Shown here piece by piece: positions 30,268 through 42,238 of a stretch of 64,000 nucleotides of DNA (position 1 is its first letter; every line of letters begins with the position of its first letter). The position numbers and the translations under genes are program-made. Source of the stretch: a virus; the UHGV virus genome UHGV-0037395; one strand, 5' to 3'. Under the pieces are notes generated by a model. The model searched no databases and was not told where the DNA came from. It saw only the letters and a list, made by a program, of their open reading frames with translations.

Positions 30268-30759
30268 ATGAACACTGAAATAACCCAAGACCTACTAAGG
30301 ACCTACTTTGACTATAAAGATGGAGAATTGTTTTATAAACCAACTTATAAAACCCCTGCGGGAAGAATATCCAAAAAAGCAGGTAAATCCGCCAGGCTAA
30401 CTCCGTGTAATGGGTACTATCGTATAAATGTACCAAGAATAGGTGTACAGAAAGAACATAGGATGATTTTCCTATATCATGAAGGATACCTACCAGAAGT
30501 AGTAGATCATATTGATAGGGATAAAGAAAACAATAGGATAGAGAACCTTAGGGCATCTAATCTTCAGGACAACGCTATTAATCGCTCCATAAGTAAAAGT
30601 AACACCTCTGGCATTGTGGGTGTCCATTATGATGAATCGTATGGTAAGTGGGTTGTAACGTACAGGGGTAAGTACTTTGGAAGATTTGATACCAAAGAAG
30701 AAGCTGCCGAAGTTAATGCTAATGTTCGTGCCCTTGATCAAACCCGTATAAATAGTTGA
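30268..30759 (+). CDS. HNH homing endonuclease
   Basis: VDHIDRDKENNRIENLR HNH motif plus an AP2-like C-terminal domain. Confidence 0.8.
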   Translation: MNTEITQDLLRTYFDYKDGELFYKPTYKTPAGRISKKAGKSARLTPCNGYYRINVPRIGVQKEHRMIFLYHEGYLPEVVDHIDRDKENNRIENLRASNLQDNAINRSISKSNTSGIVGVHYDESYGKWVVTYRGKYFGRFDTKEEAAEVNANVRALDQTRINS

Positions 30760-37108: not shown

Positions 37109-37372
37109 ATGGGACTCTTTAGAAAGAAAATTTATTTAACAGAAAGGCAAGAACACAAACTTCTTACTCTATCAGAATACTATCATTTACCTTATGACTA
37201 CTTTGTAGATAGAGCAATAGAGGAATTCTTGGATAGGGAATTAGAGGTTATAAAACCTAAGCCTCCTGAGCCGTCTTTAGCATCAAATGGTCCACAAAGA
37301 GAGTACCCAAGAGTTCCACCAATGCCTCCTACTCCGCCAAAAACTAGAGTTGTAACAGAAGGTGAAAAATAA
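37109..37372 (+). CDS. hypothetical protein (Pro-rich C-terminus)
   Basis: 87-aa ORF with GGAG SD. Confidence 0.45.
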   Translation: MGLFRKKIYLTERQEHKLLTLSEYYHLPYDYFVDRAIEEFLDRELEVIKPKPPEPSLASNGPQREYPRVPPMPPTPPKTRVVTEGEK

Positions 37373-37848
37373 TGTCGGTTTTCCACATTTACACAGATGG
37401 TGCTTGTAAGTCTAACCCAGGTCCAGGTGCTTGGGGTTTTATTGTCTATGATGATAACGACGATCGTTTAGGTTCTAAATCTGGTTATAATCCTAAAACT
37501 ACAAATAATGAGATGGAACTCACAGCTATTGTAGAAGCTCTACGTTGGTCTGTTAAAAAAGATAATAGACCAATTGCTATCTATACTGACTCTGCTTATT
37601 GCAAAAATGGTATGGAAAGTTGGATGTTTTCTTGGCAAAGGAAAGGTTGGAAGAAAGCAGATGGTGAAGTTCCTCTTAATCTAGAACTTTGGCAGGAAGC
37701 ATTTAAATTAACACAGCAATATATTAACTTTCATAATACTAACCCTACCTTTATTAAGGTTAAAGGACATTCTGGTATTAGTGGTAATGAAGCTGTAGAT
37801 GCATTATGTAACACAGTTATTACTGAAGCTGAAATGGCTGAGATGTGA
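37372..37848 (+). CDS. rnh: ribonuclease H (RNase HI)
   Basis: YTDGAC..NPGPGAWG...TNNEMEL...DS catalytic residues of RNase HI. Confidence 0.9.
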   Translation: MSVFHIYTDGACKSNPGPGAWGFIVYDDNDDRLGSKSGYNPKTTNNEMELTAIVEALRWSVKKDNRPIAIYTDSAYCKNGMESWMFSWQRKGWKKADGEVPLNLELWQEAFKLTQQYINFHNTNPTFIKVKGHSGISGNEAVDALCNTVITEAEMAEM

Positions 37849-37868
37849 TAAATAAATTAAAAATTTTC

Positions 37869-37897
37869 TTGCTTAAAGCCCTCTAATTTAGTATAAT
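37869..37897 (+). promoter_or_regulatory. early promoter (TTGCTT / 17 / TATAAT)
   Basis: ttcTTGCTTaaagccctctaatttagTATAAT. Confidence 0.75.
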
Positions 37898-37924
37898 ATT
37901 CGTATTGAAAGTGAGGAGGGCTTT

Positions 37925-38209
37925 ATGCGTATTTATAACTCAAATTCACTAGGATTTAAACCATTGAGAAAACGTGCACAATCACCTCGTCAAATAAGAA
38001 AGGCTAATATTGGTGAGCCAGAAACACGTCTTCCACCCCCTCCAGAACAACGTTTAGTTTATCTGGACGAAGAATTAGCTGAACGCGAAAGAAAAGCTCA
38101 AGAAGAGATTGAGCGTAAGAAAATGTGTACTGCTCCGGCCTACTCCAAAGGGGCTTATCAGTATATCTATACAGCCGAGGAGGCTAAAGATGTGGGGCGT
38201 AAAAAATGA
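37925..38209 (+). CDS. hypothetical protein
   Basis: 94-aa ORF. SD GAGGAGGG. Confidence 0.45.
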   Translation: MRIYNSNSLGFKPLRKRAQSPRQIRKANIGEPETRLPPPPEQRLVYLDEELAERERKAQEEIERKKMCTAPAYSKGAYQYIYTAEEAKDVGRKK

Positions 38210-38655
38210 AGATTACCGAATTTAAAGGTACTTATAGTTTCTTATCTAACTTTTATTTATCACCAATTACTTTCGAATATCTAAACGAGATATGGCATGC
38301 TGATACTGTAGAACATGCTTTTCAGGCTATGAAATCCGACCAAAAAGATGATGTAGCTCATGTACTGCGCTCCCTAAATGCAGGAGTTGCCAAACGTAGA
38401 GGACGTAAATTAACTCTACGCTCTGACTGGGATAAGGTAAAAGATGATGTAATGCTAGAGCTTTTACGGTTAAAGTTTGCAATCCCTGATTTGAGAGACA
38501 AACTGTTAGCAACAAAAAATGCAACTTTGATCGAAGGAAATACCTGGGGAGATACATATTGGGGTGTTTGCCGAGGCATCGGGGACAATACTTTAGGTGT
38601 TCTTTTGATGCAGGTAAGGTCTGAAATTAAAAGAAGCTTACAGTTAATAAATTAA
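38206..38655 (+). CDS. NADAR-domain (YbiA/DUF1768-like) protein, putative ADP-ribose/N-glycoside hydrolase
   Basis: FLSNFY...F.EYxxxxWhs.EHAFQAMK...AKRRGR...W...KDDVM...LRLKF...LLAT....LIEGN.WGDTYWG matches the NADAR/YbiA family consensus along its whole length. Confidence 0.75.
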   Translation: MKITEFKGTYSFLSNFYLSPITFEYLNEIWHADTVEHAFQAMKSDQKDDVAHVLRSLNAGVAKRRGRKLTLRSDWDKVKDDVMLELLRLKFAIPDLRDKLLATKNATLIEGNTWGDTYWGVCRGIGDNTLGVLLMQVRSEIKRSLQLIN

Positions 38656-38663
38656 AAATTCAT

Positions 38664-38692
38664 TTGCTAAACGCTTCAAATTCTCGTATAAT
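38664..38692 (+). promoter_or_regulatory. early promoter (TTGCTA / 17 / TATAAT)
   Basis: catTTGCTAaacgcttcaaattctcgTATAAT. Confidence 0.75.
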
Positions 38693-38730
38693 ATACTTCA
38701 TAAATTGATAAACAAAAAGGAAAATAAATA

Positions 38731-39246
38731 ATGGCTAAGCAGAAAAACGCAAAAACTCAAGCAGCTCCGGCAGTTAAAACTTTCCCAAAGACTGAGGCTA
38801 ATCGCAAAGCTCGTCTGGAACGTCACCTGCGTAAGCATCCTACCGATGCTCAGGCTGCACAAGCACTGAATAACCCGGCTCCGATTCGTCAGAAGCCTAA
38901 AGCTAAAAATGCCACCCGTAAATCCTACAAAATGGTTATGTATGTAGAAAATTACGGCCACAAATCTGTCCCAGTTTCCCTGAGCTTCAACGCTGGGGCT
39001 GAATTGTTCCCTCGTAATGGTATGTCTATGAAAGACTATGAGAAGGCAGTTAACCAGAAGCGTAAACCAACAGCAGATGTATTGCGCGATACTCGTGGAC
39101 AGTTTGGTTCTGTTAAGCCAAATATCTTTGGCGTAGAGTATAGTAAAGATAATGTTCGTGCTCTGTGTTACGGCGTAGGCATTAAGTTCACGGGTGATTC
39201 CGCTCGTAAATCTGCTAAACCAGCTCGCAAACGTAAAGCGAAGTAA
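38731..39246 (+). CDS. highly basic hypothetical protein (possible nucleic-acid binding)
   Basis: 171 aa, K/R-rich termini, strong codon bias. Confidence 0.5.
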   Translation: MAKQKNAKTQAAPAVKTFPKTEANRKARLERHLRKHPTDAQAAQALNNPAPIRQKPKAKNATRKSYKMVMYVENYGHKSVPVSLSFNAGAELFPRNGMSMKDYEKAVNQKRKPTADVLRDTRGQFGSVKPNIFGVEYSKDNVRALCYGVGIKFTGDSARKSAKPARKRKAK

Positions 39247-39254
39247 TAGATAAA

Positions 39255-39285
39255 TAGGGGCAGAAGCCCCTACAATCTACTGATT
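39255..39285 (+). terminator. terminator
   Basis: aggggc agaa gcccct hairpin. Confidence 0.6.
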
Positions 39286-39309
39286 CTCTAACTAATCAAG
39301 GATATTTTT

Positions 39310-39525
39310 ATGTTCTCTAAGAAACCACGTTCTGTTACTGAAATCGTTGCTTCCTTTACCACTATCACTGATGAGCTTCAAGCTCGTATTGAGGCTGATC
39401 AAAAAATCGCTGCTGATATTCAGAAACAGCAGGAAGAACTCGCTTTAAAGTTGGCTGAAACCAACAAGAGTGAAAAATCTGCCCAAACTATTATGGAAAA
39501 TATTCTTAAACTGCTGGGCAAGTAA
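39310..39525 (+). CDS. hypothetical protein
   Basis: 71-aa ORF. Confidence 0.45.
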   Translation: MFSKKPRSVTEIVASFTTITDELQARIEADQKIAADIQKQQEELALKLAETNKSEKSAQTIMENILKLLGK

Positions 39526-39530
39526 TTTAA

Positions 39531-39562
39531 ATCAGGGGGCGAAAGCCCCTCTTATTTGGAGA
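39531..39562 (+). terminator. terminator
   Basis: cagggggc gaaa gcccctc plus TTATTT. Confidence 0.6.
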
Positions 39563-39566
39563 AACT

Positions 39567-39803
39567 ATGCGTAATTTTGTAGCAAAGAATGATTTTAACC
39601 GTGCTAGCACTCATAAGTCCGCTAGGGATTATACACGACTTTCTAGTCATGAGGTAATGGATACCTGTTATGAAGAGCTGGAAGGTAGCTGGAATGAATG
39701 GCCCGACTTCTCTATGGAAGAGAACTGGGATGTCAGTGAGGATATGCTTCCTGGTTTTAAAGACCCCAAGAAGTGGGAGTCTATTAAAGAGACAGCTCTT
39801 TAA
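39567..39803 (+). CDS. hypothetical protein
   Basis: 78-aa ORF. Confidence 0.45.
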   Translation: MRNFVAKNDFNRASTHKSARDYTRLSSHEVMDTCYEELEGSWNEWPDFSMEENWDVSEDMLPGFKDPKKWESIKETAL

Positions 39804-39831
39804 TAGTTTTCTACACAATAAAGGATAAGTT

Positions 39832-40533
39832 ATGAAAGTAAAACCATTTGGTATGCTAGATATTGAATCTCTAGGAACTCCAGGAGATTGTGGTACTACT
39901 CATATCGCAATGCCTTCATTCTCTTTTGTGGCTATGCATGGAATTGATAAAGACCCTGATCTAGTATTTGTTACTTTGGATGTGCAGGATCAGCTTAATT
40001 CTGGTGCCAAAGTTACAGCATCTACTCTAGCATTCTGGATGGATCAAGCTAAAAATAGCCCGTCTGCTATCCACATTATGGAAGCTATGAAGGAACGTAA
40101 TCCAAAACTGATTGCCTTCCAAAATGGTAAACATCATTGCACTAATAAATTAGGCTCAAACTATGCTGCCTTCTCTATGGCTCAAAATATTATGGAGTTG
40201 GCTCTAGGTGAAAATGCTTTGTATTACGGTAATGGCCCAGAGTTTGATATGACTATCTACTCTGCAAACACGTTCCATGCTGGAACCAATGAAGAGGTAG
40301 TTCCGTGGAAATTCTGGAATTTGGGCAATGTTCGATCTCTTCGTAATATCTGGATGCAAGCTGGATACAGTTATAAGGCTCTAGAGACCGAAGGTATTAG
40401 CTGGGCAATAGCTAAAATGGAGAAGATGGACACTATTCGTTATGGGATCTATCCGGTTAAGCATGATCCTGCATTTGATGCCTTAGTTGAAAGCTATTGT
40501 GTTGCAGCTATGATCGAAAAAATGAAAATTTGA
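39832..40533 (+). CDS. DEDDh-family 3'-5' exonuclease (DnaQ-like)
   Basis: Exo I MLDIESLG. Exo III HDPAFDAL with conserved His. Confidence 0.7.
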   Translation: MKVKPFGMLDIESLGTPGDCGTTHIAMPSFSFVAMHGIDKDPDLVFVTLDVQDQLNSGAKVTASTLAFWMDQAKNSPSAIHIMEAMKERNPKLIAFQNGKHHCTNKLGSNYAAFSMAQNIMELALGENALYYGNGPEFDMTIYSANTFHAGTNEEVVPWKFWNLGNVRSLRNIWMQAGYSYKALETEGISWAIAKMEKMDTIRYGIYPVKHDPAFDALVESYCVAAMIEKMKI

Positions 40534-41920: not shown

Positions 41921-42238
41921 ATGACTTTTCATATTTTGATTGATGATGTGCGCAATCTTCACGGAATGGACATTATCATTCGAACCCCAGAAGCCGCTGT
42001 AGAGTTTCTGAATAAAACTGATACCACAGGCCACTTCGTTTATATGGATAATGACTTGGCTGTAGATGGTATGGAAGGTTATCAAATTCTTCGTTTACTC
42101 TTAGAATTTGGGCAGAGACCAAAGAAAGTGGTACTAGTAACCTCGAACCCAGTAGCTAAGCAAAATATGCGTAATGATTTGCTTGACTTAGGGTATAAAG
42201 AAAATCCCAATCGTGTTGAATATGATTGGCAGGAGTAA
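41921..42238 (+). CDS. hypothetical protein
   Basis: 105-aa ORF. Confidence 0.5.
   Translation: MTFHILIDDVRNLHGMDIIIRTPEAAVEFLNKTDTTGHFVYMDNDLAVDGMEGYQILRLLLEFGQRPKKVVLVTSNPVAKQNMRNDLLDLGYKENPNRVEYDWQE

Follow-up and report, generated by a model that had tools for sequence, protein, structure and literature searches.

The locus examined here encodes a 149-residue protein with a NADAR domain in the early region of a T5-like phage, and the question it raises is what such a protein does for the phage: whether it removes ADP-ribose that a host DarT-type toxin has written onto guanines, as an earlier note based on the letters alone had proposed, or whether it acts in metabolism or upon some other ADP-ribose conjugate. 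The window, by which we mean the whole 64,000-nucleotide stretch of viral DNA that was analysed (UHGV-0037395), belongs to a T5-like phage (Markadamsvirinae). The region around the gene was 96-98% identical to many T5-like Salmonella and E. coli phages, and the closest record found for it was Salmonella phage WP85, with 97.6% DNA identity.

The gene occupies an ATG-to-TAA frame in the ORF list of the window, and its product matched the Pfam NADAR profile (PF08719, DUF1768) at E = 6.3e-22 and 79 bits, compared to a gathering cut-off of 35.1 bits. In the protein this match spanned residues 9-142, and in the profile, which has 163 positions, it ran from 9 to 163, so that the claim of NADAR/YbiA likeness over the length of the ORF, for which the earlier note had suggested this very profile search, was upheld at a significant score. 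The protein also matched phrog_1017 (E = 8.4e-45), and a sequence search of the PDB returned E. coli YbiA (2b3w, E = 2.8e-15) and the Phytophthora nicotianae NADAR (8bau, E = 6.8e-7). Comparison with the gene of Escherichia phage Bas32 revealed nine synonymous and two non-synonymous codon changes, and comparison with WP85 revealed seven synonymous changes and none that were non-synonymous; judged by these counts, the gene is under purifying selection. Two 76-aa ORFs that lie inside the gene on the opposite strand were taken as chance ORFs, because both the domain and the synonymous-dominated variation sit in the plus frame.

The gene order in this part of the window (nrdA, nrdB, frd (DHFR), thy, an 87-aa ORF, rnh, the T5.090 homologue, the NADAR gene and the DUF7022 gene, which is the T5.089 homologue) is that of the T5 early nucleotide-metabolism and replication block. 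The coordinates of these and other features are collected in Table 1. A likely promoter, near-identical to one annotated in T5, precedes the T5.090 homologue and is followed by a strong ribosome-binding site. The TGA stop of the T5.090 homologue overlaps the start codon of the NADAR gene (ATGA), and the homologue of the T5 promoter P-H207 lies directly after the NADAR stop, where it forms the right boundary of the NADAR cassette; a site scan revealed no terminator-like site between that stop and the P-H207 homologue. Because of the T5-like promoter upstream, the ATGA overlap and the P-H207 homologue downstream, it is reasonable to infer that the NADAR gene is expressed early, in second place in a two-gene unit, and the overlap suggests that its translation may be coupled to that of the T5.090 homologue. 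RNase H, which the earlier note had placed in the same region, was indeed found two genes upstream on the same strand. Its statement that Sir2 shares this early region held only loosely, as a Sir2 gene is present in the window, but on the opposite strand and at a distance of 10.8 kb, and is not part of the same operon.

Table 1. Positions of the features discussed, numbered from the first nucleotide of the window
Feature	Position	Strand	Evidence or remark
HNH_3 endonuclease gene	24500-25006	-	
DUF7415 repeat gene	25095-25484	-	Adjacent paralogue of the next gene
DUF7415 repeat gene	25494-25922	-	
HAD_SAK_2 gene	25925-26431	-	PF18143, E = 7.2e-20; beside Sir2
Sir2	26587-27423	-	PF02146, E = 7.7e-25
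HNH_3 endonuclease gene	30268-30759	+	
RNase H (rnh)	37372-37848	+	PF00075, E = 2.7e-32
Likely early promoter of two-gene unit	37869-37897	+	TTGCTT, 17 nt, TATAAT, A/T-rich stretch upstream; near-identical to T5 (AY543070) 'promoter' between rnh and T5.090
Ribosome-binding site	37913-37919		GAGGAGG
T5.090 homologue, 94 aa	37925-38209	+	phrog_4593, E = 3.4e-55
NADAR-domain protein, AdfN^Bas32 orthologue, 149 aa	38206-38655	+	PF08719, AlphaFold2 model, Foldseek, identity to Bas33/Bas32
Antisense ORF, 76 aa	38327-38557	-	Taken as chance ORF
Antisense ORF, 76 aa	38358-38588	-	Taken as chance ORF
P-H207 homologue	38664-38692	+	TTGCTA, 17 nt, TATAAT; promoter scan, 10/12 matches; identical to AY543070 'promoter P-H 207'
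DUF7022 gene (T5.089 homologue)	38731-39246	+	Predicted to be driven by the P-H207 homologue
Small accessory gene, 71 aa	39310-39525	+	phrog_2380
T5.087 homologue	39832-40533	+	PF16473 (Rv2179c-like 3'-5' exoribonuclease), E = 5.9e-8; phrog_255 'exonuclease', E = 8.1e-52
ORF, 237 aa	40807-41520	-	Annotated in the WP85 record
ORF, 212 aa	40840-41478	+	Annotated in the Bas32 record; no Pfam match
cREC_REC gene	41921-42238	+	PF20274, E = 3.8e-15

An AlphaFold2 model of the protein, built from an alignment of 40 relatives, reached a pLDDT of 97.8 and a pTM of 0.91. The predicted structure comprised helices and two small beta elements, consistent with the NADAR fold, in which a helical core is flanked by two small beta-sheets. 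When the model was searched against the PDB with Foldseek, the only significant matches were YbiA (2b3w; TM 0.82, 37% identity) and 8bau (TM 0.79), the structure of the P. nicotianae NADAR with ADP-ribose. In that enzyme, Schuller et al. (2023, PMC11543638) report that the distal ribose is flanked by E43 and E125 and that the pyrophosphate is held by K50, R79, W89, R93, D130 and W133, with K75 near the site. The same source reports that the NADAR domain of DarG1 from E. coli C7 requires E88, K95 and D171 for the hydrolysis of guanine-ADP-ribose, and that its K115, the equivalent of P. nicotianae K75, is required in vivo against DarT1, but not for catalysis.

Residue equivalences were obtained by aligning segments of YbiA and of the P. 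nicotianae protein to the existing family alignment with MAFFT, using the numbering of PMC11543638, and conservation was counted in the 40-sequence alignment of relatives. Five positions of the window protein, namely E36, K43, E110, D116 and W119 (P. nicotianae E43, K50, E125, D130 and W133, respectively), were invariant among the 40 relatives. Conservation was at least 90% for K63 (K75), for W75 (W89) and for the glycine of the pair G66/R67 (G78/R79), and K79 corresponds to R93. With the ADP-ribose-binding and catalytic residues all kept, the enzyme looks catalytically intact. The position that defines the subfamilies, E110, appears to carry the glutamate of the YbiA/NADAR signature, rather than the aspartate of DarG1 or the histidine reported for T4-like proteins. 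Furthermore, K63 seems to match the C7 lysine that is required against DarT1 in cells, a position at which YbiA has alanine.

On the question of function, the protein proved to be one that has already been studied. Escherichia phage HildyBeyeler (MZ501074), which is BASEL phage Bas33, encodes a NADAR identical to the window protein at 149/149 residues, and that of IrisVonRoten, or Bas32 (MZ501075, 6642-7091), which is encoded at the same locus, is identical at 147/149 (98.7%). The two differences in the Bas32 record, T9A and K104E, both lie away from the catalytic positions. The GenBank records of the Bas32 and Bas33 proteins thus differ at two residues, although PMC11825919 calls the two NADARs identical. 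The window gene shares with the Bas32 gene its slot between the T5.090 homologue and the DUF7022 gene, its promoters and its taxonomic setting (Markadamsvirinae, genus Tequintavirus), and apart from the two GenBank substitutions there is essentially no difference, the window representing another phage isolate. It is therefore an orthologue of the Bas32 gene, the function of which was published in 2025 and hence is not new.

Johannesman, Awasthi, Carlson and LeRoux (Nat Commun 2025, PMC11825919; preprint PMC11257639) named this protein AdfN^Bas32, for anti-DarT factor NADAR. Supplied from a plasmid, it was reported to neutralize DarT1 toxicity in uninfected E. coli, and on DarTG1 hosts its ectopic expression allowed RB69, T5 and Bas25 to reach full titre again (PMC11825919, Fig. 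5). The plaquing of T5 on DarTG2 was unchanged. The authors describe the protein as guanosine-specific, as requiring no other phage factor and as having been co-opted independently of AdfN^T4 (gp30.3), and they assign it a position apart from the YbiA-like housekeeping branch. They further report that T5 is inhibited by DarTG1 (PMC11825919, PMC11257639), which fits the absence of the NADAR gene from T5. The proposal of a phage NADAR that reverses guanine ADP-ribosylation by a DarT-type toxin, and so counters DarTG, is accordingly supported by the identity to AdfN^Bas32 and by its reported rescue against DarT1 and DarTG1. In scope, however, it holds for the guanine-modifying DarTG1 and not for DarTG in general, as T5 was not rescued on DarTG2 (PMC11825919). 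Most of the experiments that the earlier note suggested have already been published for AdfN^Bas32, with the exception of a knock-out in a native T5-like phage. No such knock-out was found in the available text of the article (PMC11825919) or of its preprint (PMC11257639), and a HIDEN-SEQ preprint, in the part available, concerns only T4 adfN. Likewise, the evidence in the available text of PMC11825919 is from in vivo experiments, namely toxin neutralization and plaque rescue, and no in vitro hydrolysis data for AdfN^Bas32 were found there.

Comparison with other characterized NADARs placed the window protein apart from each of them. AdfN^T4 (T4 gp30.3), the first anti-DarTG1 NADAR described from a phage, shares the superfamily, the reversal of guanine ADP-ribosylation by DarT1 and the logic of an orphan antitoxin. 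However, a BLASTP comparison of the window protein with gp30.3 gave E = 1.2 and no meaningful alignment, on which ground membership of the gp30.3 type was rejected; this value is consistent with an independent origin of the T5-like and T4 AdfN proteins. T4-like NADARs are reported to carry histidine at the equivalent of E125 (PMC11543638), where the window protein has glutamate, although the histidine of gp30.3 itself was not located, as its C-terminal half aligned unreliably in MAFFT. The two phage proteins are also reported to differ in behaviour: AdfN^T4 did not neutralize DarT1 outside infection and its rescue of T5 stayed below half a log, whereas AdfN^Bas32 is active by itself and protects unrelated phages too (PMC11825919, PMC11257639).

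DarG1, the antitoxin of DarTG1 in E. coli C7 and G. lovleyi (BC4488 subfamily), would share with the window protein both the fold and the hydrolysis of guanine-N2-ADP-ribose, and C7 residues E88, K95 and K115 correspond to E36, K43 and K63 of the window protein. Membership of this type was rejected on three grounds. The second acidic catalytic residue is aspartate in DarG1 (D171 in C7), but glutamate (E110) in the window protein. DarG1 carries an N-terminal beta1-beta2-alpha1 extension, proposed to bind ssDNA, whereas the 149-aa window protein is a minimal domain without it, with the Pfam match beginning at residue 9 and the model having no extra N-terminal helix module. In addition, a Pfam and PHROG scan of the flanking ORFs (37109-40533) revealed no DarT or other ART gene beside the NADAR gene, the neighbours being the T5.090 homologue, RNase H and the DUF7022 gene. 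The K-12-type housekeeping NADAR of E. coli, YbiA, is the closest solved structure and is likewise a minimal single domain with a Glu-type active site. It differs in giving no protection from DarT1 (PMC11125620) and in its alanine at the position of K63.

Taken together, we consider it highly probable that the gene encodes an orphan antitoxin-like NADAR, a Markadamsvirinae AdfN of the AdfN^Bas32 type, which acts as a guanine-N2 ADP-ribosyl DNA glycohydrolase. The protein would be made early, from the second cistron of the two-gene unit within the nucleotide-metabolism and replication block. Infection of a DarTG1 host would free DarT1, which would place ADP-ribose on the N2 amino group of guanines in the phage DNA and so block replication. 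The NADAR would then bind the ADP-ribose, with K43 and R67 on the pyrophosphate, W75 and W119 contributing, and E36 and E110 beside the distal ribose; these putative roles are assigned from the homologous P. nicotianae and E. coli C7 enzymes. Cleavage of the N-glycosidic bond to guanine would restore unmodified DNA and allow replication to resume, and the thymidine adducts of DarT2 would not be acted upon. The sufficiency of AdfN^Bas32 in trans suggests that the window phage would need its NADAR for growth on DarTG1 hosts. A natural correlation exists in T5, which lacks the gene, is sensitive to DarTG1 and is reported to be rescued by AdfN^Bas32 in trans (PMC11825919).

Three other readings of the protein were weighed against this one. 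The first holds that its main targets are other ADP-ribose conjugates, such as soluble immune signals, guanine-ADP-ribose in RNA or the cytidine-ADP-ribose of pierisin/ScARP-like or YarT-like toxins, and that the reversal of DarT1 is a side activity. This reading takes support from Iyer et al. and from the finding that Glu-type NADAR/YbiA families also remove cytidine-ADP-ribose from DNA and RNA, as well as guanine-ADP-ribose from RNA, whereas cytidine-ADP-ribose is left in place by DarG1- and T4-type proteins (PMC12945103), the window protein being Glu-type. However, the reported DarT1 phenotype is strong, with full titre regained (PMC11825919), and there was no ART-type partner among the flanking ORFs, and we regard it as unlikely that DarT1 reversal is secondary. 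A related proposal, that T5-like AdfN is a broad-spectrum eraser of nucleic-acid ADP-ribosylation that acts against pierisin/ScARP-like, YarT-like and RNA-targeting ARTs besides DarT1, strikes us as possible, if still doubtful. If true, it would help to explain why AdfN^Bas32 is active on any DNA without phage co-factors, unlike AdfN^T4.

The second reading, which we judge to be somewhat less probable again, is that the protein is a YbiA-type metabolic N-glycosidase that clears reactive intermediates of the riboflavin pathway and has no primary role in the evasion of defence; such a function of E. coli and plant YbiA/COG3236 is cited by Schuller et al. (2023, PMC11543638). It agrees with E. 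coli YbiA being the best match among solved structures by both sequence and fold, with glutamate at the subfamily-defining position, as in YbiA, and with the many GenBank labels of 'swarming motility protein YbiA', 'N-glycosidase' and 'GTP cyclohydrolase II'. It is also favoured by a match to the NCBIfam model TIGR02464 ('riboflavin biosynthesis intermediates N-glycosidase'), but the score of 66.8 bits fell below the curated cut-off of 73.7 bits, and assignment to the YbiA equivalog was therefore rejected. More directly, an identical protein is reported to neutralize DarT1 and to rescue phages on DarTG1 hosts (PMC11825919), whereas E. coli YbiA hydrolyses guanine-ADP-ribose in vitro but gave no rescue from DarT1 in vivo (PMC11125620). 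The placement of the protein by Johannesman et al. off the YbiA-like housekeeping branch also speaks against a metabolic role, and a dispensable cassette present in about one-fifth of T5-like phages fits counter-defence better than metabolism. A different or second physiological substrate may nevertheless exist for the anti-DarT1 NADAR, given that YbiA is its closest solved relative and that the glutamate signature is common to both.

The third reading, a functional pairing of the NADAR with the phage's own Sir2, for example to erase ADP-ribosylation written by Sir2, is hinted at by the remark of the earlier note on co-location and draws on the presence of both genes in the window and on their shared NAD+/ADP-ribose biochemistry, but it is very improbable, as Sir2 is distant and on the opposite strand, as 864 phage records contain a Sir2 homologue, 205 of them with at least 90% identity, compared to 96 for the NADAR, so that many phages have Sir2 without a NADAR of the window type, and as AdfN^Bas32 is reported to be active alone in E. 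coli with no phage factor (PMC11825919). Finally, the protein gave sub-threshold cross-matches to the PADLOC/NCBIfam defence models PDC-M42C (27.8 bits) and DS32_2 (45 bits compared to a cut-off of 240), which mirror the shared domain only and were set aside.

The distribution of the anti-DarTG1 NADAR among relatives revealed it to be a variable part of the genome. Between 95 and 96 of the approximately 435-447 T5-like records that matched the region carry the gene, all with at least 95% protein identity. In T5 (AY543070, region 1900-1990), the NADAR is absent as a clean, gene-sized indel, the T5.090 stop lying within about 10 nt of P-H207. The window's T5.090 homologue is 92% identical to T5.090 and diverges only over its last ~12 residues, beside the insertion point. 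By this alignment, the NADAR gene forms an accessory cassette of exactly one gene's length. In the Epseptimavirus Salmonella phage UTK0009 (OQ359889, 2989-3438), a NADAR that is only 60% identical occupies a site one gene further left, with rnh on one side and the T5.090 homologue on the other. This suggests that a NADAR has entered the neighbourhood more than once, the second acquisition being independent. Recent capture from an enterobacterial host was not supported as a source, and the gene is not a recent copy of host ybiA. The best 80 cellular relatives were only 40-53% identical and came from many distant bacterial phyla and, in a few cases, from archaea; Enterobacteriaceae were absent from these 80, and all plasmid matches of the protein were below 60% identity.

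Other small genes in the vicinity also vary between phages. The 71-aa ORF downstream of the DUF7022 gene occurs in Bas32 and WP85, whereas T5 lacks it between T5.089 and T5.088, and WP85 carries an additional 261-bp ORF near the equivalent position. On these comparisons, the interval from rnh to T5.087 is a hotspot of small gene indels. The matches of the T5.087 homologue to exonuclease families indicate that the legacy label of 'metallopeptidase', carried by T5.087 in T5 and in many relatives, is probably wrong. Further downstream, two long ORFs overlap on opposite strands, and the WP85 and Bas32 records each annotate a different one of the two.

Elsewhere in the window, the HAD_SAK_2 gene beside Sir2 and the cREC_REC gene both encode domains associated with RNA repair or ADP-ribose processing, so that the phage carries several domains of NAD+/ADP-ribose networks, namely Sir2, NADAR, HAD_SAK_2 and cREC_REC. 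The two adjacent paralogous genes at 25095-25484 and 25494-25922 contain two DUF7415 repeats each (E = 2.5e-32, 2.1e-34). The two HNH_3 genes, one of which has a weak, sub-threshold match to the AP2 domain, are probably homing endonucleases, which are common in T5-like phages.

In summary, the function of an identical or near-identical protein was already known, and our study adds the structure of the locus, the distribution of the gene, its active-site signature and its separation from Sir2. The remaining interest lies in the correction of annotation, in the polymorphism among T5-like phages and in the breadth of the substrate range. Most T5-like GenBank records call the gene by one of the three enzyme or motility labels given above or 'hypothetical protein', where the correct name is AdfN, or anti-DarTG1 NADAR. 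The gene illustrates clearly how a phage can carry an orphan antitoxin-like enzyme that reverses, by chemical means, a modification made by host defence, and its presence or absence predicts which T5-like phages should be able to plate on DarTG1 hosts, which could aid in the choice of therapeutic phages.
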